IMG/VR virus record: IMGVR_UViG_3300035510_000237
Length of the DNA: 43,034 nt
Strand: one strand, 5' to 3'
Source: a virus
Shown: positions 2,269-42,848 of the stretch, piece by piece
Numbering within the stretch: the first letter of the stretch is position 1
Layout: every line of letters begins with the position of its first letter
The notes under the pieces: generated by a model
What the model saw: only the letters and a program-made list of their open reading frames with translations
What the model was told of the DNA's origin: nothing
Database searches by the model: none
Translations under genes and position numbers: made by a program

Positions 2269-2280
2269 TATAATATAATT

Positions 2281-24746: not shown

Positions 24747-26342
24747 TTAACTCATTGATTCACGATTCTATAATGTCTTTTCGCTCTTTTCATTATCTTC
24801 TTTTTCAGGGCGACCAACTTCATTGTCGCTAGAGCCACTAGAAGATTTACTCTAACGGCTAGCTTTAAGCGCAGTTACATTTTCAGCACTCATAACAGAC
24901 GACTGTAAAGGTGGCACCATGAGTTCGCTAAGATTAAGAACTTCATTCTCAAAATAAGCGGTATGAAGAATAGAACTCTAAGAATGTCCTAATGCAACCT
25001 GCGGAAGCATCATAGAGAAGCCAATCTAAGAATCTTCTTTATACATCTTAGCCAAAGTTTGATAATTATACTGAGTGGTTTCCATCATACAAAATCTAAA
25101 ACCATATTTTTTTCTATTAGCACATTTTGATTGTACTACCTTATCCAGAAATGCACTAAGCTAGAACAGCAATGTGCGCATTGTGGATTCATCAGCTAAA
25201 ATAGAATTAGTAAGCGCAATATTTCCATCGGCATTAAATATATCTTTAGATATACCAAGAGAATTATAAACTGTACGCTCCACTCTCTCCAAATCATCTG
25301 TAGTAGTACTAGTATTATCATCAGCCATATCTTCAACTTGAATGTCCGCAAATGTCGTTAAAACATCAACGCCAATAGCATGACTTAACATTTCAACTGC
25401 ATTATTATGAATATCAGTTGCTTCGTCAACGTCAAAAATTAAATCGCCATTCTTATCAAGAGGCAGTTTCTGAATAACAATCTTTAATAACTGCTACATC
25501 TACTTGCGGCGATCTAGGTCTTGTGCGGCATCCAAATCTAGAATAGCAGGAATCGCATTAATAAATAAAGGAGCATCATGATTATTAAAACTAAACTTGA
25601 CCGCAGTTCCTGGGTCTAATGTATACCAACTGCCATAAGTCTCACTTATAGTATCTGCAGGGAGTTTATGAGTTTTATATAATCTATATCCTTTTTGAAA
25701 ATCTGCTGGGAACATACCTAAAATTTTTGTTCGATATGTTAAATCGGGGAATTGTTCATCAAAGAATTTCATATTAAAATCTACAACAGGCTAATCCCCA
25801 ACATTAAATAAAGAACGACAATAATTAGCTGGAAGCTATTGTAAAACTAGACTATCAGAAGAATCAATTATATAGCCATAATAAGCGCCACTGCGAATAA
25901 CTTCCAATGAAATATCACCCGCAAGTTTCTTAATATGAGTGTTATCTAAATAATTTAAAATATTATTCCAGTCTTTTAAAATCTTATCATTATTAGCCGT
26001 ATCATCTAATACTTCTGGATAAATATACCAATCATATCTATATAAAAAAGCATAATAATCACAAGCTGTTTTATAAATACCACTGGTATTATAAAAATAG
26101 TTTGAAATTTCCCGCATAAGTTTAATATCATGGGTTTCAATAGCTTTTAAGATAAATCGTTTATTACCAAACTAATTCTTAGCTTTGCTAAAAGCGCCTA
26201 AATTTAAAACCGCATCTTCAAGAGTTTTTGTGCCAGTTTTAATGCGGCCATACTACACAGCTCCCTCTGGGCCTTCGTATGTTTGGCGTTTACTCATCAT
26301 ATCAAAGCCTTTAGCTCGAATTTCTTCCTATCTATTTCTCAA
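24747..26342 (-). CDS. Portal protein, ~530 aa, TAG-recoded (about 13 TAG).
   Basis: GGGGGTG RBS then TTG at ~26340-26342. One frame is open to the TAA at 24747-24749 and contains track ORFs 25836..26117, 25500..25772 and 25161..25391. Its position between TerL and the scaffold gene, and the motif ..ISNYFYNTSGIYKTACDYYAFLYRYDWYIYPE.., are portal-like. Confidence 0.55.
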
Positions 26343-26357
26343 TAACTTTCACCCCCT

Positions 26358-32135: not shown

Positions 32136-32204
32136 AACTTGATTATATATCTCACCTCCATTACTTTTATTATAGCAAAAATTTTGGTCAAAGTCAACTG
32201 TTTT

Positions 32205-32232
32205 TGACAAATAAAAAAATTTTTGGTATAAT
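32205..32232 (+). promoter_or_regulatory. Sigma-A-type early promoter: TTGACA, 16-nt spacer, TATAAT.
   Basis: ttgacaaataaaaaaatttttggtataat lies ~30 nt upstream of the RBS and ATG at 32262. Confidence 0.55.
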
Positions 32233-32261
32233 ATTTTTAGAAAAATGGAAAGGGATAAAGT

Positions 32262-32483
32262 ATGATTTTCTCTATTATTTTAAATATTGTTTTAGCAATC
32301 ATGTTGGTAGGTTTATTTTTATTTGTTAAATATGTTTTGTTAAATTCTGTTTTAATTGATATATATGCAGATGCGGCAGCTCGACAACAAGTTGAAAATA
32401 TATTTCCATGTGATTATTTATTAATAGAAATAGCAACTAATTCTACTACTGATGGTTTTTCTTATGACTTTTCAAAGATATGA
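32262..32483 (+). CDS. Small membrane protein, 73 aa.
   Basis: Track ORF with a hydrophobic N-terminus (IILNIVLAIMLVGLFLFVKYVLL). Promoter and RBS are upstream, and it ends in TGA. Confidence 0.5.
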   Translation: MIFSIILNIVLAIMLVGLFLFVKYVLLNSVLIDIYADAAARQQVENIFPCDYLLIEIATNSTTDGFSYDFSKI

Positions 32484-32715
32484 AGAATTCAAGGTTATTG
32501 GAATGACAATTTTTACTCAAAGAACTAAAGATGATTTTTTTGAACATCAAGTAGAAATTGCCAAAAAATTGGAAAACCGCATTCCCGCAGATGATTTAGA
32601 AGATGTACTTGATGAAGCATTGAGTGAAATCATAGTTGTCCCAGATACTTACATATATCAAACCAAGGAGGGAACATACCATTGGCTCATGGAATTGCAA
32701 TCTTTTTATGGTTGA
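32452..32715 (+). CDS. Hypothetical early protein, ~84 aa; overlaps the previous gene, so the start is uncertain.
   Basis: Track ORF. It is acidic, ..DDLEDVLDEALSEIIVVPDTYIYQTKEGTYHWLMELQSFYG*. Confidence 0.4.
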   Translation: MVFLMTFQRYEEFKVIGMTIFTQRTKDDFFEHQVEIAKKLENRIPADDLEDVLDEALSEIIVVPDTYIYQTKEGTYHWLMELQSFYG

Positions 32716-32892
32716 CTTTATCAACCGTTGCTTTTCTTGAATATAGAGAATTTTGTTAGGATTTAAGTTTTGGAGCTAAGTTTGTAGTTATTACTATTTT
32801 TATAATTGGTGGGCCATTTTTTGCAGTCGCTGAAGTATTAAGTGCTATATTAGATTGTATACTGCCTTCCGGATGGGATGAGGATGATAGAC

Positions 32893-33303
32893 ATGACACT
32901 TTCGGGTGATGGAGCTTTAAGATTAAGTTTACTGTTGGAATGGGATGAATATACCAAAGAGCATGGATTAAAGAATCCTTATAAAAAGCGCAACAATGTT
33001 TTAATAGCTAATTCAGATAAAATGCGTGTAACCAGCACAGGTGTTATTTATGAAAATGATGTAGAGGCGCAACTTCCTCCAAAAGAAGAATGTGAAAATT
33101 GGAATAAAATGGAGTATGAATTTGTTGCGCGAGGCTTCCTAAAGGAAGCAGGATATGATGGCTTTCTGCGGCAAGTAGAATTTGCGCGAGGAGCTATTGA
33201 TTATTTGATTGATGAAATTTGTCCATGCGAAGCTGATGATGGTCAGTGTCATATGGATTGTCGATATTATGAAGGAGGGTGTACTAATGACTTTAGTACC
33301 TGA
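32893..33303 (+). CDS. Hypothetical Cys-rich early protein, ~136 aa.
   Basis: Track ORF 32878..33303, with the likely start at the ATG at 32893 (MTLSGDGALRLS..). The C-terminus CPCEADDGQCHMDCRYYEGGC is a possible metal-binding cluster. Confidence 0.45.
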   Translation: MTLSGDGALRLSLLLEWDEYTKEHGLKNPYKKRNNVLIANSDKMRVTSTGVIYENDVEAQLPPKEECENWNKMEYEFVARGFLKEAGYDGFLRQVEFARGAIDYLIDEICPCEADDGQCHMDCRYYEGGCTNDFST

Positions 33304-33538
33304 GAATACTACTAGACGAGTGGATGGGCTTGGCCGCATTACGCTGCCACGAGGCCTGCGGCAAAGATTTGCTATTGATGATAAAACTGAAATGGAAATT
33401 TATACTATGAATTATAATGGTAGAAATTATATTTGCCTTGGCGAAGCTAATGAAGTTGATGATAAGTATATCACTGCTAAAAATGTATTAGAAGAGCTTG
33501 GTGTGGAAGTTCCGCCTGAGCTTTTAGAAAAATTCTAA
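33287..33538 (+). CDS. AbrB/MazE (SpoVT_AbrB swapped-hairpin) family DNA-binding protein, 83 aa.
   Basis: GAAGGAGGGTGTACTA-ATG. It reads MTLVPENTTRRVDGLGRITLPRGLRQRFAIDDKTEMEIYTMNYNGRNYICLGEANEV.. The core R-VD-LGRI-LP---R--F-I---D-E-EIY matches the AbrB N-domain consensus. The track ORF 33209..33538 is the same frame starting upstream. Confidence 0.6.
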   Translation: MTLVPENTTRRVDGLGRITLPRGLRQRFAIDDKTEMEIYTMNYNGRNYICLGEANEVDDKYITAKNVLEELGVEVPPELLEKF

Positions 33539-33849
33539 ATTGGAAGGGAAGGTTTACACCTTCTCTTCTTTTTATTTTATTAAAGGTACTTAATTCTTAT
33601 TTTCCCAGAAATAAATAAATCGTGATGCCGAATTTAAAAGAGGTTTTGGAGGGAGTATAGCTCAGAGCAAACCCGATTCAAAAAACGAAAAAATTATTCT
33701 CCCGAAATACCCCCGCCCCCTACATCAATCAGAAAAAATTTTTTCGTTTCAGTCTCAGAAAAATATATAAAAGGTATTGCCGGGTCGCCAGAAAAGCAAC
33801 GCATCGAGCGTCTTGCCACCGCGGAGGTTTCACAGGCGCGCTAACGACC

Positions 33850-34330
33850 AAAAGCGCCGTAGTTTCAGCGCTTTAAAGTGTTGAAGTATTTTTTATCTAA
33901 TTGCTTCACCGCACTAAAGCATTGAAGCATCCCATAATGCACTTTAACACAGTAAAGCATTAACAATTTAAAGTCTTTCTCTCATGGACACCTGTGAGTT
34001 AGTTAGAACTAACTATGGTTAGCCCTAACTAACCCCCGGGCACTTTAACACAGTAAAGCGCTAATACACCGCCGCATTAACGCATTAATACTTTAGTGTG
34101 GCAGAGCGCACTTTAGCACAGTAAACAGCTAATGTTTTAAAGTTCTCCTGGAGCGGACACTTTAACACATTACAGTGCTACCTCGCTGACTCGGCAGAGC
34201 GCACTTTAACGATGTAAAGGGGCGATGTATTGAAGCAAAGAATTTTTAAATTATCTATTCGGCGCACTTCACTGCCCTAAAGCGCTAAAGCAAGGGGCGC
34301 CCTAGCAATCTGCACAAAGACAGGGCCGCA
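33850..34330. repeat. Non-coding iteron-like cluster with one core palindrome.
   Basis: A 19-20 bp unit (G)CACTTTAACACAGTAAAGC occurs about 5 times (~33938, 34040, 34108, 34158, 34200). There are also GCTTTAAAGTG/CTAAAGC dyads, GGCAGAGCGCACTTTA twice, and the palindrome GAGTTAGTTAGAACTAACTATGGTTAGCCCTAACTAAC at 33996-34033. No ORF lies on either strand. Confidence 0.6.
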
Positions 34331-34346
34331 TCTTTGTCTAATCTGC

Positions 34347-34381
34347 GAGCTTGACTAAACGCTGTTTAGCTGCTATAATAG
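34347..34381 (+). promoter_or_regulatory. Early promoter TTGACT-17-TATAAT.
   Basis: cttgactaaacgctgtttagctgctataatagagc lies upstream of the RBS (AAAGGAGAG) and ATG at 34413. Confidence 0.5.
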
Positions 34382-34412
34382 AGCTACAAAGAACAAAGGA
34401 GAGATACACACT

Positions 34413-34613
34413 ATGACACACTACACTATCACTTGCCCATACACTAACACTACCATTAAGAGAACCATTAGTGAATACGAGGCTATTGCTACAATGAGAC
34501 AGTTCACAACATACACCTTTGGAGAAATCTACCAGCTTAGTAAAAAGAACAATCCCCTGACTCTTTCCAGTAGCATGGGCATTATGTACACAATGACCAA
34601 AGAGATTGATTAA
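34413..34613 (+). CDS. Hypothetical early protein, 66 aa.
   Basis: Track ORF with a good RBS and a TAA stop. Confidence 0.5.
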   Translation: MTHYTITCPYTNTTIKRTISEYEAIATMRQFTTYTFGEIYQLSKKNNPLTLSSSMGIMYTMTKEID

Positions 34614-34694
34614 CATTTGTGCAGAACGCCACTTGAAAAGCGAATAAAGATAGAGTATAATAAAGGCACAGAAACGATGAAGGAGATATAAACT

Positions 34695-34877
34695 ATGAAG
34701 ATGTATGCGAAAACAAACAGCAAATGGATGGGCGTTTATCATTCCTCTCCTAATGAGTGGACAGAGGTCAAGTATGAAACTGAAAAGTATTTCCCCTCTG
34801 GTAGACGTGAGGTTCTGGTATTCGCAAACGGCGCAATGGAAAAGGCTGACAGATGCGATGTCTGCTATGTGTTTTAA
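34695..34877 (+). CDS. Hypothetical early protein, 60 aa.
   Basis: Track ORF with GAAGGAGATATAAACT-ATG and a TAA stop. Confidence 0.5.
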   Translation: MKMYAKTNSKWMGVYHSSPNEWTEVKYETEKYFPSGRREVLVFANGAMEKADRCDVCYVF

Positions 34878-34895
34878 TAGAAAGGGGTACAAACG

Positions 34896-35012
34896 ATGAA
34901 AAAGGTTATCATAGGTTTGGCTATCTTGCTTGCGGGTTTGATTGGTGCGGCGCTTGCAACACACAACGCAAAAAGCTATGTTTATAATGTAGCATACTAT
35001 GACGGTGTGTAA
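34896..35012 (+). CDS. Small secreted/membrane peptide, 38 aa.
   Basis: AAAGGGGTACAAACG-ATG. It reads MKKVIIGLAILLAGLIGAALATHNAKSYVYNVAYYDGV*, a lipoprotein-like signal, and ends in TAA. Confidence 0.4.
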   Translation: MKKVIIGLAILLAGLIGAALATHNAKSYVYNVAYYDGV

Positions 35013-35231
35013 GCACGTTAGTTGATGAAGACGGCGAAACGTTCATTGGTGACTATGACCTTGCAGAGGGTACATACTATGTGTGTTATGATAGCAATAA
35101 GACAGTAACAAGACTGGATGATGTACCTGTTAGATTTGAAAAGCTGGACTAATTGAAGTCCCTTTTAATAAGAAGAAGTAGTATCTGGTATAGTAATAGA
35201 ATGGGAATGAAAAACGGCATTCCCATTCTAT

Positions 35232-35340
35232 TATTTAAAATGAGTTAGTTAGAACTAACCATGGTTAATTGAAACTAACCCAGTAGCGCGAGTTAGTTAG
35301 AACTACCTACTGTTAGTTACCGCTAACGGCCTAGACTTCA
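35232..35340. repeat. Palindrome cluster (TTAGTTAGAACTAAC family) plus the conserved CCGCTAACGGCCTAGACTTCA box.
   Basis: gagttagttagaactaaccatggttaattgaaactaacc ... gagttagttagaactacctactgttagttaccgctaacggcctagacttca. Confidence 0.55.
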
Positions 35341-35434
35341 CCACGCTAAAGCGTTACAACAAAAAATCGCTAATTCGATGATGCTTTAAAGCACTAAAGT
35401 ATTTCCCGAAATGCTGCTTTAAAGTATTGAAGTG

Positions 35435-35570
35435 CGAGTTAGTTAGAACTAACTATGATTAGTTCTAACTAACTAGGGACTATGGGTTAGTTAGAACTAA
35501 CTATGATTAGTTCTAACTAACTAGGGACTATGGGTTAGTTAGAACTAACTATGATTAGTTCTAACTAACC
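35435..35570. repeat. Tandem array, three units of ~43 bp, of the perfect palindrome AGTTAGTTAG-AA-CTAACTAACT paired with its mirror TTAGTTCTAACTAACTAGGGACTATGGG.
   Basis: gggttagttagaactaactatgattagttctaactaactagggactat is repeated 3 times head to tail. Each unit contains two oppositely oriented 10-nt arms. Confidence 0.65.
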
Positions 35571-35715
35571 AAGGCGGACAGCAACACTTTAAAGCACTAA
35601 AGAGTTTGCGTGGACGTTTAATCAAAGACTTTAATAGATTAAAGTATTAAAGAAAAGTTTGCGCTGACATTCAAACAAACTTTTAAAAAGTTTTTGATTT
35701 TTATACAAAAACCCC

Positions 35716-35744
35716 TTGACAAATGAATGAAAAGGGCTTATAAT
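35716..35744 (+). promoter_or_regulatory. Early promoter TTGACA-17-TATAAT.
   Basis: ttgacaaatgaatgaaaagggcttataat lies upstream of the RBS and ATG at 35779. Confidence 0.55.
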
Positions 35745-35778
35745 GGTCACAGAATTTAACGAAAGGGGCTAATACATT

Positions 35779-35967
35779 ATGAAGTATAGCTATTATGAAA
35801 ATCTTATTGACAACGCTGAGACTGTTGAGGAAGCCGACCACATTATTACTTGCATTGAATGCGACATGAATATCACCGATGAAGATTTTGAAAAATCTAT
35901 TGTCTATGCACAGGAAGTTATGGACGAATTGGAAAGAGCACATAAATGGGAAAGAGATTTCATGTAA
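35779..35967 (+). CDS. Hypothetical acidic early protein, 62 aa.
   Basis: Track ORF with RBS GAAAGGGGC and a TAA stop. Confidence 0.5.
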   Translation: MKYSYYENLIDNAETVEEADHIITCIECDMNITDEDFEKSIVYAQEVMDELERAHKWERDFM

Positions 35968-36020
35968 TACAATTTGAAAAGAAAGGGCTACTTTTTAAAG
36001 GTAGCCCCTTTTTTACCCTA

Positions 36021-36340
36021 TGAGTTAGTTTCAACAAACTATAGTTAGTTCTAACTAACCTATAGGGCCAGTTAGTTAGAACTAACTACTGTTAGGCTCC
36101 GCTAACGACCTAGACTTCAATGCTTTAAAGTGCTAAAGTAAAATTTTGCGATTTTGGCGTCGCTTTAAAGTGCTAAAGCGATTCCCGAAATTCAACACTT
36201 TAAAGTGCTAAAGAGTTTGTGCGAGCGCTCACGCAAAGACTTCAGCAAGCTAAAGTGCTAAAGAGTTTGATTAAACGTCAATGGACTTTTAAACGAGAAT
36301 TTTAGCACGTTAAAGTATTAAAGTGCTGCTGATGGAAAGA
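36021..36340. repeat. Third copy of the composite non-coding repeat: palindromes + CCGCTAACGACCTAGACTTCA + CTTTAAAGTGCTAAAG iterons + TCCCGAAAT.
   Basis: gagttagtttcaacaaactatagttagttctaactaacc..ccagttagttagaactaactactgttaggctccgctaacgacctagacttcaa, then gctttaaagtgctaaag 3 times, gattcccgaaatt and ctaaagtgctaaagag twice. Confidence 0.6.
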
Positions 36341-36577
36341 AATGGGGTGTTACCCCCATTTCTTAAAGCTGGATTTCTCCCAGGCTCATATTTTTGATTT
36401 CTTTCATTATTTGACTTTTTAATGGTCAGAATGTGAACTAGGGAAAATACAAATTGACACCTTGTTTTCAGCACATTTTGGAGGAAAAACACATTCTGAC
36501 ACTATAAATTCCCTTGATTTTGTTGTAAGATATAGACGTTCCAAGGGAACGCAAACAAAATAAAGGGGTTTGATACT

Positions 36578-36742
36578 ATGGCATACAGAAATTATAAAAA
36601 AGCAATCAATGGTTGTTTCAACTACAATGAGGCTTTAGAGGTTTTCACCCAGGCTATGAATGATTCTAGGGTATCCAGCAAGCACTTGGAAAAGTTAAAT
36701 GCGCTGTGCTGGAATCGTTTCGTCCTTCGGGTAGCTTGTTAA
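36578..36742 (+). CDS. Hypothetical early protein, 54 aa.
   Basis: AAAGGGGTTTGATACT-ATG. It reads MAYRNYKKAINGCFNYNEALEVFTQAMNDSRVSSKHLEKLNALCWNRFVLRVAC* and ends in TAA. Confidence 0.4.
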   Translation: MAYRNYKKAINGCFNYNEALEVFTQAMNDSRVSSKHLEKLNALCWNRFVLRVAC

Positions 36743-36777
36743 AAGCTACCCACGAAAAAGAAAGAGAGGTTATACAA

Positions 36778-36948
36778 ATGACTATGCAAGAATTTTTCTC
36801 CGCTTGGAACGACTTTTTCCAGAACGAACTTGACAACTACAACACTATCCAGGCCGGCATTGATTTTTTTGTGAATGAACATGCTACCAGTTACGAGGAA
36901 TGGAATGCTATGCATGAACTGCTAGAAGATTCTTTCTCAGACCTTTAA
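36778..36948 (+). CDS. Hypothetical acidic early protein, 56 aa.
   Basis: AAAGAGAGGTTATACAA-ATG. Same frame as track ORF 36706..36948. TAA stop. Confidence 0.45.
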   Translation: MTMQEFFSAWNDFFQNELDNYNTIQAGIDFFVNEHATSYEEWNAMHELLEDSFSDL

Positions 36949-37053
36949 AAAAAAATAAGGTTTTTTTTCAAAAAAGAGTTGACTTCTAGGCCATTATCTG
37001 CTATACTATCAACGTGGGAACACACTATATAAATTTTTTTGGAGGCATGTAAA

Positions 37054-37182
37054 ATGTATACTAGCTTTGATTATGAAATTCAGTCTGACGAATTCGCAAT
37101 GGAATACGAGGAATGGCTAGCCCTTCAGGAGGAGCTTTACAATCCTGATTTTGAGGACATGGAAAAGAGCCTGAATAGCTGA
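37054..37182 (+). CDS. Hypothetical acidic early peptide, 42 aa.
   Basis: Promoter gagttgacttctaggccattatctgctatact then GGAGGCATGTAAA-ATG. It reads MYTSFDYEIQSDEFAMEYEEWLALQEELYNPDFEDMEKSLNS* with a TGA stop, followed by the hairpin terminator CCCCTGGGtgaaaatCCCAGGGG at ~37194-37217. Confidence 0.4.
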   Translation: MYTSFDYEIQSDEFAMEYEEWLALQEELYNPDFEDMEKSLNS

Positions 37183-37234
37183 CACAAAGAAAAATCCCCT
37201 GGGTGAAAATCCCAGGGGACAAAATGAAAAAAGT

Positions 37235-37270
37235 TCTTGACAAAACAGCATTTATAGCTTATACTATAAG
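37235..37270 (+). promoter_or_regulatory. Early promoter TTGACA-18-TATACT.
   Basis: ttcttgacaaaacagcatttatagcttatactataag. Confidence 0.5.
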
Positions 37271-37327
37271 AGAAGTCGGAACCCACCAAAAAATGACCGC
37301 CTTAAAGGCAGAGAGGAAACGATAATT

Positions 37328-37663
37328 ATGAAAGCAACTGAGATTAAAACCACATTCACCACCGATTGGACTTGCGACTATCTGGAAAGCCAGATGAATG
37401 AACGTTACAAGTTAATTGGTACTTCAAGAATAGACCGCATAACCCATGAATGCTTTTTCCATGGAATAGACGGCGATAAAGATATGGTCGAACCTGAATT
37501 CAGCTGGGATGTTCTGGAAAAGAAATTCATGGCAGTGGTAAATGAGGCTACTGAAATTATGAAAGCCCAATTTGCTGAGGCTTTCCAGGCGGAAAAAGAA
37601 AGAAAAATTGATACCTGGAAATGGGTAGCAGAGGAAAAAGCTGAAATGGCAGAAAACGAATAA
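37328..37663 (+). CDS. Hypothetical early protein, 111 aa.
   Basis: Track ORF with RBS GAGAGGAAACGATAATT-ATG and a TAA stop. Followed by the terminator hairpin TTTCCCGGTTC..GAACCGGGAAA at ~37673-37710. Confidence 0.55.
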   Translation: MKATEIKTTFTTDWTCDYLESQMNERYKLIGTSRIDRITHECFFHGIDGDKDMVEPEFSWDVLEKKFMAVVNEATEIMKAQFAEAFQAEKERKIDTWKWVAEEKAEMAENE

Positions 37664-37729
37664 ACAAAAAAACTTTCCCGGTTCTTGGAAACAGGAACCG
37701 GGAAAGATACAAAATATATAAGATTAGTA

Positions 37730-38060
37730 TGTTTTAATAGACTAAAGTATCAAAGTATACTGCGGCGGTATGTTTTAATACTTTAGCAAACTAAAACCTG
37801 GTGTAGAGGTATGTTTTTGCGATTTACTGTGATAAAGCATAGCAAGAAAGTATGTTTTGGTACTTTAAATTGATAAAGCGTCTCTCAGGGAAGGATACTT
37901 CAACGCTTTAAAGCACGGCCGCGCGTTGGCGGAGGGCGCAGCCCGTTCTGCCGCTTTAAAGTGCTAAAGCAAAAAATTCTGCTATATGCTTCATCGAGCT
38001 AAAGCGGTGAAGCACTCCCGAAAGCCACGCATCGTGCTCATAGCGGAATGAACAAACTTT
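37730..38060. repeat. Fourth iteron-like cluster of the (C)TTTAAAG / (G)CTAAAG family.
   Basis: ctaaagtatcaaagtatac, ttttaatactttagcaaactaaaac, ctttaaattgataaagcg, cgctttaaagcacggcc, ccgctttaaagtgctaaagc, gagctaaagcggtgaagcactcccgaaag. Confidence 0.5.
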
Positions 38061-38082
38061 CTAGCTCATCTTTGTGCATTAT

Positions 38083-38115
38083 GCCGGCTTGACAAAGCTC
38101 TAGCCGCATGATACA
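38083..38115 (+). promoter_or_regulatory. Early promoter TTGACA-17-TACAAT.
   Basis: cttgacaaagctctagccgcatgatacaat lies upstream of the RBS and ATG at 38148. Confidence 0.5.
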
Positions 38116-38147
38116 ATAGAGCCACACCATAGGAAAGGATTGATATT

Positions 38148-38381
38148 ATGTTAAAATTTAGGATTTATGACGCTGTGCAAGGTGATTTTCTGTTTCATAC
38201 CACTAGCAGGCTCGAAGCTATCCAGTTTCTGAACGTTGTGGAAGATGTTTTCAAGAAGGTGCATGGTGCATCCATTTTTCGGTACAGCTCTTACTATCTG
38301 GATATCTATGTTCCTAAGTCTGTAAATGAATACCAAAAAGCAGTATCTCTGCTTATTAGCGCCACTGCGGAAGGGGAATAA
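38148..38381 (+). CDS. Hypothetical early protein, 77 aa.
   Basis: Track ORF with RBS GGAAAGGATTGATATT-ATG and a TAA stop, then the hairpin GGGGAAtaacaTTCCCC. Confidence 0.55.
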   Translation: MLKFRIYDAVQGDFLFHTTSRLEAIQFLNVVEDVFKKVHGASIFRYSSYYLDIYVPKSVNEYQKAVSLLISATAEGE

Positions 38382-38404
38382 CATTCCCCTTCCCTTTTAT
38401 CCCA

Positions 38405-38445
38405 TGAGTTAGTTAGAACTAACTATAATTGGTTCTAACTAACCA
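38405..38445. repeat. Palindrome pair of the TTAGTTAGAACTAACTA family.
   Basis: gagttagttagaactaactataattggttctaactaacc. Confidence 0.55.
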
Positions 38446-38541
38446 AAAAAATATTTTTTTTTATTTTTTTTATTTACCCCCTTGACAAATCAATAAAAAA
38501 GTAGTATATTATAGATACAAAGTTTAAAGGAGCTGTTACCT

Positions 38542-38847
38542 ATGACTGAAATGGATAAACTTATCCGCCTGATGGGCGATTCTATCATTCCGCATGAGAT
38601 TGTTATGCACGAACTTACTCACACCCTTGCGATTGTCTACCCTTCCCGCAAGAATTATGTATGTGATGCCGTGTGTCATGAGTATTCCTATGGTGGCCCA
38701 TTGGGCTTGCTTGAAATCATGGGTTTGGTCGGTGATGACATTCTCGATGATGTTGAGGGCTGGCTCACTGCCGAAGAAGTGTTTGACAGAATCCGGAAGC
38801 ACTACTGTGAAAACTATGAACTAATTGACCTATTGGAGGGAATCTGA
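38542..38847 (+). CDS. Hypothetical early protein, 101 aa (Cys/His-containing).
   Basis: Track ORF. Promoter ttgacaaatcaataaaaaagtagtatatt, RBS AAAGGAGCTGTTACCT-ATG, TGA stop, then the terminator CTGAGCttcgGCTCAG+TTTTT. Confidence 0.55.
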   Translation: MTEMDKLIRLMGDSIIPHEIVMHELTHTLAIVYPSRKNYVCDAVCHEYSYGGPLGLLEIMGLVGDDILDDVEGWLTAEEVFDRIRKHYCENYELIDLLEGI

Positions 38848-38875
38848 GCTTCGGCTCAGATTTTTCCTTTAGCAA

Positions 38876-38965
38876 GAGTTAGTTAGAACTAACCATGGTT
38901 TACTCTAACTAACTAGAGGGAGCTATGGGTTAGTTAGAACTAACTATGATTAGACTAAACTAATT
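38876..38965. repeat. Palindrome cluster of the TTAGTTAGAACTAAC family.
   Basis: gagttagttagaactaaccatggtttactctaactaactagagggagctatgggttagttagaactaactatgattagactaaactaa. Confidence 0.55.
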
Positions 38966-39051
38966 GCGGCGCGCAATAAAAAAAATTAAAAAAAAACTAT
39001 TGACAAATTAAAATTTTATGATATAATATAAACATAAGATAAAGAAAGGAA

Positions 39052-39255
39052 TTGATACAAATGCTGTACAATGATAACATCGAATTCAATACCCTGTGGG
39101 AAGATATGGTAGAATGTGGAATCGCCACTGATGCAGAGCTGAGCCTTGCTTGTGCGCTGTGCGGTACTACTAATGAGACTTTAACAAGCGTCCTTTACAT
39201 TCGGACAGGCTGTAGAAGCTGGGCGCAAGTTATGGGAGAGGATGAAGAAGATTGA
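39052..39255 (+). CDS. Hypothetical early protein, 67 aa.
   Basis: Track ORF. Promoter ttgacaaattaaaattttatgatataat (TGn extended -10), leader aagataaagaaaggaattgatacaa-ATG, TGA stop. Confidence 0.55.
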   Translation: MIQMLYNDNIEFNTLWEDMVECGIATDAELSLACALCGTTNETLTSVLYIRTGCRSWAQVMGEDEED

Positions 39256-39336
39256 AAAATCTTCTTCAAACCCCTTGACAAGCCAATAGGAACGTGCTAT
39301 AATAAAGCTACAAGATAACGAAAGGAACTGATTCAA

Positions 39337-39609
39337 ATGACGTATAATTATTACAAGGCTGAACTGGACTATGCCGAAGATGAAGAATCCATTCGGGAAA
39401 TTATGGCTGGGGCTGAGATTGACGAATCTCTTTGTGATGAAGATTATGACCGCCTATATTGTATCGCCGAAGAATACATGGAGGAAATAGAAATGGAAGC
39501 CGAAGCACTTGCGCAAGAAGAAGAAGAAGAAACAGAAGAAGAACCTAAATGCTGGGGAATGCGTGACTACCTGAGATATATCGGCATGAAAGAAAAAGAC
39601 TTCCAGTAA
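39337..39609 (+). CDS. Hypothetical highly acidic early protein, 90 aa.
   Basis: Track ORF. Promoter cttgacaagccaataggaacgtgctataat, leader cgaaaggaactgattcaa-ATG, TAA stop, then the terminator hairpin AAGAGGATTTTCAT..ATGAAAATCCTCTT at ~39617-39657. Confidence 0.55.
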   Translation: MTYNYYKAELDYAEDEESIREIMAGAEIDESLCDEDYDRLYCIAEEYMEEIEMEAEALAQEEEEETEEEPKCWGMRDYLRYIGMKEKDFQ

Positions 39610-39778
39610 TTGGAAAAGAGGATTTTCATTTGAATAAAATAAAATGAAAATCCTCTTGCTCCATTTTCAAATCATTTTTTGATAGACACTTTTACAATTT
39701 TCAAATGATTTTTTGAATTTGCCTATTGACAAACTTCCAAACCTGTGATATAATAAAACCATAAGATAAAGAAAGGAA

Positions 39779-40045
39779 TTGATAATTATGATTAGCGCAT
39801 CAGATGCAAAAACAAAGGCCAAGACTTTTCTGGAAGAGAAAGAAAGAGCTGAGAGAACCAAAACCGTCAAGTGGGTAGAGGATGTGGTTGCTCTTAAAAT
39901 TGAAAGTGCTGCTGAACGGGGTACTTTTAGCATTGAAGTTTATATTCCTGGGGAAATGACAATTAAGTATGTGCAAGACCATTTGCGCAATCTGGGTTAT
40001 AGAACTGAGATGCACGCCTTTAATATGGCGATTCTTTGGGGCTAA
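39779..40045 (+). CDS. Hypothetical early protein, 88 aa.
   Basis: Track ORF. Promoter ttgacaaacttccaaacctgtgatataat, leader aagataaagaaaggaattgataatt-ATG, TAA stop. Confidence 0.55.
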   Translation: MIIMISASDAKTKAKTFLEEKERAERTKTVKWVEDVVALKIESAAERGTFSIEVYIPGEMTIKYVQDHLRNLGYRTEMHAFNMAILWG

Positions 40046-40054
40046 AAAAAGTTC

Positions 40055-40102
40055 TTGACAAATCCCTCTTGGAATGCTATAAATATAAGTGTTCCAAGAG
40101 GG
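40055..40102 (+). promoter_or_regulatory. Promoter with an embedded inverted repeat: TTGACA-[CCCTCTTGGAA]-TATAAA-[TTCCAAGAGGG].
   Basis: ttgacaaatccctcttggaatgctataaatataagtgttccaagaggg. The 11-bp arms flank the -10 hexamer. This is the first of five such promoters. Confidence 0.55.
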
Positions 40103-40132
40103 AAATAACCAATAGAAAGGAATTGATAAATC

Positions 40133-40456
40133 ATGGAAAAAATCGTTTTTAGTCAACATTGCTTAGAGGAAAGGCAAGACCGCATTGTGCGCATTGCGTC
40201 AACTATTGGTTTTGGGAATGTGATTGCGAAAGTCCATAGTTCTAACAGGACGGGCGCAACTGTTCACTGTCTGACTGATACAGGCGTTGTAATCGTAAAG
40301 GACAGCCGGGAAGAAATGGTTATTACATTGTTTGTCTGTAACATTGATAGGCTTTACGCTTATTGGAGAAAGATGGGACAGGATAAACCCCCACGGCAAA
40401 TTATGAAGGTTGTAGAAAACAACGAAAGAAAAAGAAAATTTCTTTATGAAATTTAG
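40133..40456 (+). CDS. Hypothetical early protein, 107 aa. It is the only early gene that terminates at TAG.
   Basis: Track ORF with leader agaaaggaattgataaatc-ATG. The stop is TAG at 40454-40456; readthrough would add 16 codons up to a TAA. Confidence 0.55.
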   Translation: MEKIVFSQHCLEERQDRIVRIASTIGFGNVIAKVHSSNRTGATVHCLTDTGVVIVKDSREEMVITLFVCNIDRLYAYWRKMGQDKPPRQIMKVVENNERKRKFLYEI

Positions 40457-40465
40457 AAAAACCTC

Positions 40466-40513
40466 TTGACAAAATCCCCTTGGGATGCTATAATATAAGT
40501 GTTCCAAGGGGAA
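40466..40513 (+). promoter_or_regulatory. Promoter with an embedded inverted repeat: TTGACA-[CCCCTTGGGA]-TATAAT-[TTCCAAGGGG].
   Basis: ttgacaaaatccccttgggatgctataatataagtgttccaagggg. Confidence 0.55.
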
Positions 40514-40533
40514 CAAAACAAATTTGAAAGGAA

Positions 40534-40920
40534 TTGATACAAATGATAGATTTTATTTCTAATGGAGAAAAAACCATTGCTATTGACCTGGAGACTACTG
40601 CTATTCCTGTGGAGTACGCTAGAAAGATTTGTGAGGCCAAACAGAGAGAAAAGCTAGAAGCCTATAACAAAAAGATTGCAACTTTGGTTAAAACTGCTAT
40701 TTCTCACATTAACGAAGAGCTTATGAATGGAAAGATTCATGCATCTTATCTTTTTACCCCTTATAATGCAGATATTTCCAGAGACGATGCCCTTAAAATT
40801 TGCCATTTGATTGAAGCAGAGTTTAAAGATAAAGGATATTGGACTTTCATTTATGAGTATGCTGAAAGTAACCACAATAAATATGCTAGCATTGACATTT
40901 CTATCCCCGAAAAAAAATAA
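40534..40920 (+). CDS. Hypothetical early protein, 128 aa.
   Basis: Track ORF with leader tgaaaggaattgatacaa-ATG and a TAA stop. Confidence 0.55.
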   Translation: MIQMIDFISNGEKTIAIDLETTAIPVEYARKICEAKQREKLEAYNKKIATLVKTAISHINEELMNGKIHASYLFTPYNADISRDDALKICHLIEAEFKDKGYWTFIYEYAESNHNKYASIDISIPEKK

Positions 40921-40932
40921 ATAAAAAATCTC

Positions 40933-40980
40933 TTGACAAATCTCTCTTGGAGTGATATAATAAAGATGCTCCAAGAGAGA
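40933..40980 (+). promoter_or_regulatory. Promoter with an embedded inverted repeat: TTGACA-[TCTCTCTTGGAG]-TATAAT-[CTCCAAGAGAGA].
   Basis: ttgacaaatctctcttggagtgatataataaagatgctccaagagaga. Confidence 0.55.
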
Positions 40981-40996
40981 TAAACAAAGAAAGGAA

Positions 40997-41275
40997 TTGA
41001 TAATTATGAAAATTTATGAAATTCTCACCGCTAGCTATCTCAACAGTGATAGAAACCAAGAGATATGTGCTTATGTTGCATCAAAAGAGATTGTGGAAGA
41101 TTATATCCATGCGTGTATCCCTGAAATTACATCGGTCACTGATAAAAAAGATGGCAGAGTTGTTTGGGCATCAGATTGGAAATGGACAGATTTCCCCGGT
41201 TTTGCTCCTGGGCTTGTTTATAGAGATAAAGAAAATTGTATATTCTTTAGAGAAATCGAAGTAATTGAAAATTAA
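40997..41275 (+). CDS. Hypothetical early protein, 92 aa.
   Basis: Track ORF with leader agaaaggaattgataatt-ATG and a TAA stop. Confidence 0.55.
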   Translation: MIIMKIYEILTASYLNSDRNQEICAYVASKEIVEDYIHACIPEITSVTDKKDGRVVWASDWKWTDFPGFAPGLVYRDKENCIFFREIEVIEN

Positions 41276-41278
41276 CTC

Positions 41279-41327
41279 TTGACAAAACCCTCTTGGAGTG
41301 ATATAATAAAGATACTCCAAGAGGGAG
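41279..41327 (+). promoter_or_regulatory. Promoter with an embedded inverted repeat: TTGACA-[CCCTCTTGGAG]-TATAAT-[CTCCAAGAGGG].
   Basis: ttgacaaaaccctcttggagtgatataataaagatactccaagaggg. Confidence 0.55.
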
Positions 41328-41345
41328 ATACAAAACAGAAAGGAT

Positions 41346-41576
41346 TTGATAACTATGGTAGGAACAAAGGTATGGTGCTTGTTTGATGAATCAGATTTGC
41401 TGGGAATTTATTCCACCAAAGAGAAAGCCCTAGCGGCAACTAAAGAGATATTTTTTGAAGAAGATGTCTTTTTTTCGTATGAAGAGGATGAAGCAGAAGA
41501 GGCGCTTAAAGATTTGGAAGATACTGGCGAAGCACCCACCTGCGGATTCTTTCTTAAAGAATTTATTTTGGAATAA
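41346..41576 (+). CDS. Hypothetical acidic early protein, 76 aa.
   Basis: Track ORF with leader agaaaggatttgataact-ATG and a TAA stop. Confidence 0.55.
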   Translation: MITMVGTKVWCLFDESDLLGIYSTKEKALAATKEIFFEEDVFFSYEEDEAEEALKDLEDTGEAPTCGFFLKEFILE

Positions 41577-41579
41577 CCC

Positions 41580-41628
41580 TTGACAAATAGCCCTCTTGGT
41601 GCTATAATAATAGCATCAAGAGGGAAAC
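41580..41628 (+). promoter_or_regulatory. Promoter with an embedded inverted repeat: TTGACA-[GCCCTCTTGGTGCT]-ATAATA-[AGCATCAAGAGGG].
   Basis: ttgacaaatagccctcttggtgctataataatagcatcaagaggg. Confidence 0.5.
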
Positions 41629-41658
41629 CGAAAAACAAATTTAAAAGGAATTGATATT

Positions 41659-41898
41659 ATGGCAACACTGAATGAACTCACTGCTTTTTATGATACCCTG
41701 TATTACAAGAAAACCCAGGCGGAATTTATTTCCGATGAAATGGATGAAATCCTTTCTGCGGTTGCACCCTGTAGCCCCTTCAAGTGCGATAGATGCCGAT
41801 TCAAAACAGAGTGTGATATTGAAAACAGAATGGTTTATCTGGAAACCGAATATTCCCAGCTGATGCAAGATATTAGAAACGCTATCAGAAAACTGTGA
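41659..41898 (+). CDS. Hypothetical early protein, 79 aa, with a CxxC..C pattern.
   Basis: Track ORF with leader aaaaggaattgatatt-ATG and a TGA stop. Terminator-like GAGGGCTTGCGCCCTC + T-run at ~41897-41925. Confidence 0.55.
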   Translation: MATLNELTAFYDTLYYKKTQAEFISDEMDEILSAVAPCSPFKCDRCRFKTECDIENRMVYLETEYSQLMQDIRNAIRKL

Positions 41899-41994
41899 GG
41901 GCTTGCGCCCTCACTCTTTTTTAAAATTTTTCTTGACAAATAAAAAATTTTATGATATAATATATATACAAGATATGAAAGGAGGCTATTCCGA

Positions 41995-42114
41995 ATGACA
42001 TTGGAATTATTCAAGGCGCTCTGTGAGATTCTGAAGTAGTGTTTAGCCACTGCGGACTGTAGCTCTTGCGCGCTGAGAGAGTTTTGTGGAAAAATTCCTA
42101 CCTCTTGGGTATGA
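41995..42114 (+). CDS. Micro-ORF: a 14-aa peptide ending at TAG, or a 39-aa Cys-rich peptide if TAG is read through.
   Basis: Promoter ttcttgacaaataaaaaattttatgatataat, RBS GAAAGGAGG, ATG at 41995. It reads MTLELFKALCEILK then TAG at 42037-42039, then in frame (Q)CLATADCSSCALREFCGKIPTSWV then TGA at 42112-42114. A strong terminator, AATCCTAGCgcaaaaGCTAGGATTTTTT, lies downstream at ~42218-42252. Confidence 0.3.
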
Positions 42115-42265
42115 TATTTCTACCGGGTCGACTTCTTCGAGGTCGGTTCGAATGTCGCGCGAATCTAGCCTTCTGACATTATTTTACAAAAATATAACAT
42201 TTTTACCCTACTAATTTCCTCCCAAAAATCCTAGCGCAAAAGCTAGGATTTTTTATAAAAAGGAC

Positions 42266-42298
42266 TTGACAATTTTTTGCCAATGTGATATAATATCT
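42266..42298 (+). promoter_or_regulatory. Early promoter TTGACA-17-TGATATAAT.
   Basis: cttgacaattttttgccaatgtgatataat. Confidence 0.55.
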
Positions 42299-42325
42299 TT
42301 AGAAACAGGAAAGAGAGTGATTCCA

Positions 42326-42466
42326 ATGATAATCTACAGAATCATTTTGATTGACAAAATTGGAGGTAGACACAAAATAAATACCAAGTTCTTTTCTTAC
42401 AAGAAAGCACAAGCAACAGCACAAAGATTTAACCTGAAATATTTCATTATTAAGGAGGAAATATAA
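42326..42466 (+). CDS. Hypothetical small basic protein, 46 aa.
   Basis: GGAAAGAGAGTGATTCCA-ATG, in frame with track ORF 42266..42466, which starts upstream of the promoter. TAA stop. Confidence 0.45.
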   Translation: MIIYRIILIDKIGGRHKINTKFFSYKKAQATAQRFNLKYFIIKEEI

Positions 42467-42467
42467 A

Positions 42468-42587
42468 ATGGATTCTACTACTTACACTTTGATTATTCTG
42501 GGAATTATTACTTTATTCGGTGTATGTTGTGGCCTTGCCATTTTGGGATGGCTTGTAAAATGTGCATTTATTGCATTATTTATTTAA
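42468..42587 (+). CDS. Small hydrophobic membrane peptide, 39 aa.
   Basis: GGAGGAAATATAAA-ATG. It reads MDSTTYTLIILGIITLFGVCCGLAILGWLVKCAFIALFI* and ends in TAA. Confidence 0.4.
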   Translation: MDSTTYTLIILGIITLFGVCCGLAILGWLVKCAFIALFI

Positions 42588-42653
42588 AAAACTCTTGACA
42601 GCAGCTCGCAAGTGTGGTATAATATAGTCACAATAAAGAAAGGAATTGATATT

Positions 42654-42848
42654 ATGAAAGATTATTACACAACTCCCACTCAGGTGAAATTCACTCAGCT
42701 ACCAGAACTTGACCTCTGGATTGGCGGCATCGCTTTTCAGAACTCTATCATTTGCGGATGTTGCGGAGGTGTGTTTCCTATGAGTTCTATCGAAGGAATT
42801 GAGGAAATGCCCTGGATTGACATTAACGAAGAGATTAAAGGAGAGTGA
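42654..42848 (+). CDS. Hypothetical early protein, 64 aa, with a CGCCGG motif.
   Basis: Promoter ttgacagcagctcgcaagtgtggtataat, leader agaaaggaattgatatt-ATG at 42654, in frame with track ORF 42612..42848. TGA stop. Confidence 0.5.
   Translation: MKDYYTTPTQVKFTQLPELDLWIGGIAFQNSIICGCCGGVFPMSSIEGIEEMPWIDINEEIKGE

Follow-up and report, generated by a model that had tools for sequence, protein, structure and literature searches.

The virus contig IMGVR_UViG_3300035510_000237 of IMG/VR, a stretch of 43,034 nucleotides that was analysed as a whole and is called the window below, carries between its early genes a family of palindromic repeats, F1, whose architecture is identical to that of operators in bacterial iron regulons. 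An F1 unit is 36 bp long (GTTAG-N6-CTAAC-N4-(G/A)TTAG-N6-CTAAC) and consists of two 16-bp palindromes, which are separated by 4 bp and have their centres 20 bp apart. Within 33998-38964 there are 11 such units, all of them non-coding, and they begin at 33998, 35244, 35292, 35438, 35486, 35534, 36024, 36071, 38408, 38878, and 38929. Judged from its sequence, F1 is probably an operator of the DtxR-family type. Whether its binder is encoded by the host seems to us an evenly balanced question, and we place slightly short of an even chance the specific proposal that a DtxR/MntR-family repressor supplied by the host binds these sites. The units are listed here, with no strand assigned to any of them.

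33998..34033: F1 unit 1, GTTAGTTAGAACTAAC-TATG-GTTAGCCCTAACTAAC, with sites of a second repeat family (F2) on either side
35244..35279: F1 unit 2, GTTAGTTAGAACTAAC-CATG-GTTAATTGAAACTAAC
35292..35327: F1 unit 2b, GTTAGTTAGAACTACC-TACT-GTTAGTTACCGCTAAC, with diverged N6 and retained outer half-sites
35438..35569: tandem array of three identical F1 units (35438, 35486, 35534), giving six dimer-type sites
36024..36059: F1 unit 6, GTTAGTTTCAACAAAC-TATA-GTTAGTTCTAACTAAC
36071..36106: F1 unit 6b, GTTAGTTAGAACTAAC-TACT-GTTAGGCTCCGCTAAC
38408..38443: F1 unit 7, GTTAGTTAGAACTAAC-TATA-ATTGGTTCTAACTAAC, ending 38 bp upstream of the −35 hexamer at 38482
38878..38913: F1 unit 8, GTTAGTTAGAACTAAC-CATG-GTTTACTCTAACTAAC
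38929..38964: F1 unit 9, GTTAGTTAGAACTAAC-TATG-ATTAGACTAAACTAAT, ending 35 bp upstream of the −35 hexamer at 39000

The enrichment of these sites is strong and local. In the window, the 18-mer TTAGTTAGAACTAACTAA has 29 matches at ≤3 mismatches, all in 33995-38947 (0.13 expected); GTTAG-N6-CTAAC occurs 13 times exactly and 21 times at ≤1 mismatch (1.2 expected), with 19 of the 21 in 33998-38944; and the double site TTAG-N6-CTAA-N6-TTAG-N6-CTAA has 10 matches (0.00 expected). Among the gaps between the pentamers, 6 is specifically enriched; a second peak, at 2, reflects the register nested within the first palindrome. That first palindrome, GTTAGTTAGAACTAAC, is nearly invariant and near-identical in 10 of the 11 units, while in the second palindrome the N6 varies and the outer pentamers are retained (e.g., GTTAGTTACCGCTAAC and GTTAGGCTCCGCTAAC). 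Further clusters follow past the right end of the window, in the 8.9 kb examined there (L237). An earlier note on this DNA, made from its letters alone, had placed the palindromes at six loci or more; all six named loci do hold the family, and the rest of the window is free of it. Perfect symmetry extends over 16 bp (GTTAGTT-AG-AACTAAC, with TAGTTAG-AA-CTAACTA as an alternative register) and not 18-22 bp as proposed there, since the 18-mer and 22-mer are never perfect and their best copy has 1 mismatch. The exact three-unit tandem described in that note does exist (35438-35569, 100% identity), with a period of 48 bp and 2.8 copies instead of the ~43 bp given; the flanking GGGACTATGGG is also present, merely as the 12-bp spacer of this array. 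The stop codons pointed out in the arms are real as well, and are the automatic outcome of TTAG/CTAA half-sites in untranslated DNA.

The F1 layout is maintained among strains. Near-identical contigs from other samples have the same arrangement, and in a divergent strain (L028/L029; 85-97% nucleotide identity) F1 units lie at orthologous places. The mismatches between this strain and the window were distributed as follows.

F1 half-sites: 2/135 (1.5%), Fisher p 9e-4 versus other intergenic DNA
F1 spacers (N6, N4): 4/110 (3.6%), Fisher p 0.047 versus other intergenic DNA
Other intergenic DNA: 178/2139 (8.3%)
Coding DNA: 202/1899 (10.6%)

The half-sites are under purifying selection and approximately five times more conserved than the intergenic DNA around them. 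The number of sites is less constant: the tandem array has 2 units in the L028/L029 strain versus 3 in the window, and a 428-bp cassette (35980..36408, no strand assigned) that holds a terminator, F1 units 6 and 6b, and seven F2 sites is missing from L028 as a whole block. The gene upstream of this cassette is longer in L028 (89 aa versus 62 aa in the window), and ~830 bp of L028 are missing from the window between 33606 and 33635.

For the comparison with other phages, IMG/VR was searched with the bare architecture, GTTAG-N6-CTAAC-N4-RTTAG-N6-CTAAC, in which 20 bases are specified and all N are free. This pattern matches 63 stretches of IMG/VR contigs, many of which are relatives: about 20 have late genes in common with this phage at the late/early junction, and single early genes are common to a few. 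Their GC content ranges from 0.22 to 0.56, their N6 is free, and the motif persists in distantly related phages despite unrelated flanks and N6. One relative, L080, has ~35 sites at 20-bp spacing between divergent promoters (4027-4826), and in another, L061, 14 kb contain 54 sites at ≤1 mismatch. An exact 16-mer search of IMG/VR returned single scattered matches only. A motif search in related genomes had been set beforehand in the earlier note as the way to refute its proposal; it found the motif conserved in relatives and absent from coding DNA, with the half-sites under the selection described above. The nearest annotated phage is phAss-1, whose portal is 37% identical. Its complete genome has no F1 arrays, no F2 arrays, and no other repeated 5-N6-5 palindrome, and the absence of the arrays ruled it out as a full-genome model for the phage of the window.

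The same bare architecture, run against one genome per bacterial species, gave more than 120 loci, a lower bound; all counts for these loci (L097-L216) are among the matches listed, which include 6 phage-like loci. A Feo, iron-binding substrate-binding protein (SBP), FTR1, IlvD, or DtxR gene is present at 53 of the 118 loci that have the start of an open reading frame (ORF) within 250 bp of the site. FeoA/FeoB forms the largest cluster of genes starting ≤250 bp from the double site (34 loci), and the other clusters comprise iron-type SBPs, FTR1 permeases, IlvD, and DtxR-family repressors. By Pfam, the 138 neighbours include FeoA (28), SBP (9), FeoB (7), FTR1 (4), Fe_dep_repress (4), HMA (4), and Crp-like (3), and the Fur family is not among the 25 most frequent of the 75 families found in them. 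A DtxR-family gene lies within the ~8-kb locus in 13 cases (binomial p ~3e-13 against a background that was assumed to be ~0.6%). The bacterial double site typically begins right after the −10 box (e.g., ...TATAATGTTAG...), which is the position of a repressor. Two GTTAG-N6-CTAAC sites 20 bp apart were seen near feoAB or metal-uptake genes in Clostridia, Erysipelotrichales, Gastranaerophilales, Treponema, Succinivibrionaceae, and freshwater Actinomycetota, with flanking bases that are taxon-specific. This double site therefore appears, from its gene neighbourhood, to be a widespread non-classical DtxR-family operator layout for feoAB and metal genes.

Two details bring the phage sites closer to this class. 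The published DtxR consensus is TTAGGTTAGCCTAACCTAA, on which two dimers are bound on opposite faces (PMC7762939). Two copies of TTAG-N6-CTAA, shifted by 5 bp relative to each other, can be read in this consensus; the geometry of F1 is therefore, dimer for dimer, that of a DtxR site. In addition, the phage sites favour R before GTTAG (position −1) and Y after it (+6), as do the Feo-associated sites, which are mostly from Clostridia; the actinobacterial and Gastranaerophilales sites, unlike those of the phage, prefer T and G at the flanks. Because the flanks were not part of the search pattern, their agreement suggests a modest, independent signal of host matching. The earlier note had thought of a phage repressor; an architecture common to the upstream regions of bacterial iron-uptake genes, with DtxR-family repressors, points to a host metalloregulator instead.

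The position of F1 relative to transcription signals differs from that of the bacterial sites. Intrinsic terminators precede four clusters by 8-14 nt, in agreement with the earlier description of the palindromes as non-coding and just downstream of terminators.

35199..35236, plus strand: intrinsic terminator of the gene ending at 35152; F1 unit 2 begins 8 nt past its T-tract
35985..36015, plus strand: intrinsic terminator of gene 35779-35967; F1 unit 6 begins 9 nt on
38369..38400, plus strand: intrinsic terminator of gene 38148-38381; F1 unit 7 begins 8 nt on
38843..38867, plus strand: intrinsic terminator of gene 38542-38847; F1 unit 8 begins 11 nt on

The units of the window end 35-147 bp upstream of the next −35 hexamer, and none overlaps a promoter, so that the order in the early spacers is terminator, F1 sites, next promoter. 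In the relatives, a site is found ≤200 bp upstream of 97 of 617 consensus promoters and downstream of 42; a fixed register of sites relative to these promoters was looked for and not found, the gaps being 9, 29, 41-50 bp, and others. About a fifth of the clusters directly follow a terminator (38 of 360 cluster-sides, versus 10-12 in controls). The units themselves are A+T-rich and without a T-tract, and so do not have the form of an intrinsic terminator (a G+C-rich hairpin with a T-tract). Taken together, this layout would fit F1 spacers that are untranscribed.

F1 is interleaved in the long spacers with F2, which has the form CTTTA-N6-TAAAG and often CTTTA-N6-TAAAG-N3-TAAAG. Exact F2 copies number 11 in the window, where 0.27 would be expected; allowing ≤1 mismatch raises the count to 33, with 28 of these in 33871-37989. 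F2 also occurs at 45657-50737 in the window-equivalent coordinates of L237. Its half-sites are as conserved between strains as those of F1 (3/210 mismatches, p = 3e-5), and it accompanies F1 in several relatives (27 sites in L073, 19 in L066, and also in L069). F2 is not enriched at bacterial iron loci (2 copies in 886 kb) and is thus phage-specific. When gene families were compared with the occurrence of F2-rich loci, no Fisher test fell below ~0.05.

The explanation we favour is that each 16-bp GTTAG-N6-CTAAC would be one dimer site of a metal-dependent repressor of the DtxR/MntR family, and that two such sites, 20 bp apart on one helix face, would make up the 36-bp unit, in the layout seen over the start of feoAB and iron-uptake operons in many bacteria. 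The phage would thereby carry at least 22 dimer sites in its early spacers, and their binder would be the metal-loaded repressor of the host. No DtxR homologue was found by tblastn and hidden Markov model searches in the window, in the 8.9 kb past its right end, or in the related phage loci, and the DtxR homologues of IMG/VR are located on other, unrelated contigs; a host repressor is therefore the most economical candidate. The arrays would load and sequester this repressor, and as the copy number of the phage genome grows, the operators of the host would be drained of it and Fe/Mn uptake de-repressed. Bound arrays may also serve as boundaries or anti-silencing elements between very strong early promoters. 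A sink or a boundary is preferred to classical repression because the sites neither overlap promoters nor keep a register with them, vary in copy number, and are gained or lost as a cassette. That titration of the repressor is the main function of F1 is nevertheless doubtful in our view. A metal demand of the phage is plausible, since phAss-1 encodes an anaerobic ribonucleotide reductase together with its activase, which is an iron-sulphur enzyme; none such was seen in the window. The fullest form of the proposal, to which we give still less credence, is that a clade of phages of gut or rumen Clostridia carries natural decoy arrays, whereby replication would drain a DtxR/MntR-type repressor and the resulting Fe/Mn uptake would feed metal-dependent phage functions. 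Under a decoy function, F2 might serve as an additional sink, or else give the phage a means of its own to control the system. Overall, F1 could work as a sink, a boundary, or a metal-dependent control.

Several observations weigh against binding by a host DtxR/MntR-family repressor. At ≤3 mismatches, nothing in the window matches the classical 19-bp iron box. The search for a DtxR gene covered ~51 kb of a genome of probably 100-150 kb, together with fragments of relatives, and small winged-helix proteins, potential binders of F1, are encoded by this phage as well as by its relatives. The DtxR regulators near the bacterial sites are two-domain proteins that lack the SH3 domain, and a review states that such members are not Fe-responsive (PMC7762939); the metal could accordingly be Mn. 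In phAss-1, a distant relative, the early gene set is the same and yet F1 arrays are absent, which implies that the sites are dispensable for this type of phage. The bacterial sites lie right after the −10 box and those of the phage upstream of promoters, so the two cannot act in the same way. Finally, F1 is always accompanied by the phage-specific F2, so that a composite element of the phage seems likelier than a simple decoy.

The main rival explanation, which we consider serious but less than likely, is that F1, and perhaps F2, are operators of a DNA-binding protein encoded by the phage that governs its early region, as MrpR does through the SPBRE element of SPbeta (PMC10516654). The likeness to host iron operators would then be mimicry, with the phage protein acting on host iron genes, or convergence. 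The restriction of the sites to early-region spacers agrees with such a binder, as does their bias to the upstream side of the promoters of relatives, and the phage specificity of F2 means that at least one phage-specific binder probably exists. The following genes are candidates.

33287-33538, plus strand: AbrB/MazE-like gene, 83 aa (Pfam MazE_antitoxin, E = 7.5e-5; PHROG antitoxin)
46870-47250 in window-equivalent coordinates (L237 15212-15592), just past the window: winged-helix paralogue 1
48492-48899 in window-equivalent coordinates (L237 16834-17241), just past the window: winged-helix paralogue 2

The AbrB-like protein, which the earlier note had named among candidate binders, was rejected as a conserved one, given that only 1 of the 63 site-bearing related loci has a homologue; among 5.8 billion proteins it has a single homologue cluster, at 94% identity. 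Its gene overlaps the end of a cysteine-rich 136-aa gene (32893-33303) by 17 nt, and no toxin partner was recognised. The two paralogues past the window belong to a small winged-helix family (HTH_24) that is found in 21 F1-bearing loci, often in 2-3 copies per locus, and is among their two most widespread gene families. They are candidate binders of F1 or F2, and one of them lies downstream of or next to an F2 array. The family has, however, no specific likeness to DtxR (hhalign probability 2.9%; a PDB profile search recovered generic winged helices only) and is also present in phAss-1, which has neither array. A phage-specific operator would moreover be expected to drift, yet the half-sites and both spacings are equal in the phage contigs, which had been found with that very pattern, and in the iron operators of several phyla.

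The remaining explanations fare worse. A replication origin, built of iterons and host-factor sites, or the partition centromere of a plasmid-like phage would account for tandem, phased, dyad-symmetric sites in AT-rich non-coding DNA and for their variable copy number; the F2 arrays could be the iterons, and the largest arrays of relatives lie between divergent transcription units (L080 4027-4826). We regard this as improbable, since the sites of the window are dispersed over 5 kb in six separate clusters, with more past the right end, whole clusters are dispensable between strains, and the same architecture at bacterial iron-uptake promoters would be left unexplained. The partition or replication role considered in the earlier note also found no genes to go with it: precomputed Pfam assignments record no ParA/ParB/ParM/TubZ or initiator domain for the called genes of the ~20-kb early region. 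It is very unlikely that the units act as RNA or single-stranded DNA hairpins, whether as back-up terminators, RNase III sites, or cruciforms. The 36-nt units do fold into a stem of ~15-16 bp (−12.7 to −21.5 kcal/mol, z-scores −4 to −7) and stand right after terminators. However, the N6 segments of neighbouring sites in relatives are not complementary (1.83 of 6, versus 1.92 when shuffled), so the long hairpin is peculiar to this phage; what is conserved is the 5-bp half-sites and their spacings, and this is the signature of a dimeric protein on double-stranded DNA. The units should also be little transcribed, because they lack a T-tract and are downstream of efficient-looking terminators, and no Rfam family reached threshold, the sub-threshold matches being microRNA-like hairpins only. 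The earlier idea of operator-like arrays bound by protein was right in kind. Equally remote is the view that the units are selfish or neutral repeats without a function of their own, either resembling miniature inverted-repeat transposable elements (MITEs) or spread as spacer DNA by recombination. In its favour, composite spacers are paralogous (35284-35412 and 36063-36191, 75% identity; 35582-35653 and 36193-36264, 75%), the first palindrome is near-identical in 10 of the 11 units, and the 428-bp block is present or absent between strains. The purifying selection on the half-sites argues for function instead, as does the retention of the motif in distant phages with unrelated flanks and N6. 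A MITE had been suggested in the earlier note as well; nothing supports it, and no terminal inverted repeats were seen around the cassette in the sequences read, although no dedicated search for these or for target-site duplications was made.

The clusters stand in the early region of a phage with two coding modes. On the minus strand, 1-32236 has almost no long ORFs in the standard code and is filled with them when TAG is read through, including an ORF of 3285 aa at 2279-12136. TAG is a sense codon in the late genes of this phage, of which the portal gene, the terminase-like gene, and others have 9-16 in-frame TAG codons, and the standard code is used in the early genes. A tRNA scan of the window found none, and thus no suppressor tRNA inside it. 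Three late genes are of note.

24747-26348, minus strand: portal gene, 9-12 in-frame TAG codons
26797-28335, minus strand: terminase-like gene, 9-12 in-frame TAG codons
31085-32236, minus strand: gene matching a PHROG annotated ‘sigma factor’ (E = 1e-54), with a YonG_N domain and 9 in-frame TAG codons

The last of these is the first late-strand gene at the divergent junction. Given its in-frame TAG codons, it would be producible only after TAG suppression, and it may thus be a built-in timer of late transcription. The late proteins of the window also have domains of SPbeta type, YonD_N and YonG_N. From 32262 onwards to the right, small standard-code genes occupy the plus strand, nearly all with their own promoter and terminator. 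Its early region contains 11 perfect TTGACA-N17-TATAAT promoters, 1 with a 16-bp spacer, and several with one mismatch; in all, ~20 sigma-70 promoters at or close to consensus lie in 32204-42623. Most of them have an extended −10 (TG), and each serves one or two small acidic proteins, a layout that resembles a host-takeover module. Four early promoters have a common 66-nt module (40045-40110, 40456-40521, 40923-40988, and 41269-41334), in which 9-12 nt of the −35/−10 spacer (e.g., CTCTCTTGGAG) recur inverted just past the −10 (CTCCAAGAGAG); the inverted segment could be a further operator or a hairpin of the 5′-untranslated region. A look-up of the 78-aa product of 42612-42848 gave no record, and a distant blastn search of 33000-39500 against GenBank phages gave chance matches of promoter size only. 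The source is probably a gut or rumen phage. In phAss-1, the tape measure protein has ~3150 aa and the predicted host is among the Clostridia (PMC10607447). The phAss-1 early region has, at 123974-124094 (L236 23974-24094), ~11 phased repeats of 10-11 bp with TTTTTGACGA-like A/T tracts; the array has the look of intrinsically curved DNA and is a possible origin.

F1 can be set beside several known systems. In the iron boxes of DtxR and IdeR, as in F1, TTAG/CTAA half-sites are 6 bp apart per dimer and an operator has two dimer sites; in the 19-bp DtxR box, the two are interleaved with a 5-bp offset, whereas those of F1 are adjacent on one face of the helix, with 20 bp from one to the next. The tox gene, carried by corynephage beta, provides an earlier example of a DtxR site on a phage. 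DtxR is the repressor of diphtheria toxin expression (PMC7762939). At tox it has one site, over the promoter, while F1 has at least 22 sites per phage, upstream of promoters and after terminators, and no obvious controlled cargo gene such as a toxin. At the Mycobacterium tuberculosis bfrB gene, IdeR binds four tandem boxes upstream and activates by displacing the silencer Lsr2 (PMC9132128). As several tandem boxes upstream of a promoter, these are a precedent for non-repressive arrays of the DtxR family, although that case is chromosomal and concerns a single gene with four classical 19-bp boxes; by analogy, an anti-silencing role of F1 in the phage would be speculation. SPBRE is a short conserved element repeated in intergenic and promoter regions of the early genes of SPbeta, a large siphovirus, and bound by MrpR (PMC10516654). 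F1 is likewise a conserved element repeated between early genes, in a phage that also has YonD_N and YonG_N; SPBRE is a 15-bp motif that serves lysogeny maintenance through a phage-encoded, tyrosine-recombinase-like protein, while F1 is of a host-metalloregulon type. Phage GIL01 lacks a classical repressor and uses the LexA of its host in this role, together with gp7 (PMC4551915). In both cases, operator sites for a global host regulator would tie the phage programme to a host signal, but GIL01 has a few SOS boxes in one promoter region, with repression shown, and F1 has dozens of sites outside promoters, for which the signal would be metal status.

The effect proposed for replicating F1 phage genomes is that of transcription-factor decoy arrays and of FURTA, the Fur titration assay, in which multicopy operator DNA drains a metalloregulator and de-represses its regulon; in FURTA it is a laboratory artefact put to use as an assay, and we know of no description of a natural phage-borne decoy for a metal repressor. 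Phages do borrow single sites of host regulators, such as that of DtxR at tox and those of LexA in GIL01 and CTXphi. To our knowledge, tens of metal-repressor sites conserved across the early region of a whole phage clade have not been described. As a by-product, the comparison brings out a putative non-classical operator layout for feoAB and metal genes in Clostridia, Gastranaerophilales, Treponema, and freshwater Actinomycetota. If a host repressor does bind F1, a phage developing in anaerobic gut bacteria would be coupled to the iron and manganese homeostasis of its host, or would rewire it, and this would be a non-coding takeover of a host regulon, achieved by DNA alone and without an auxiliary gene.

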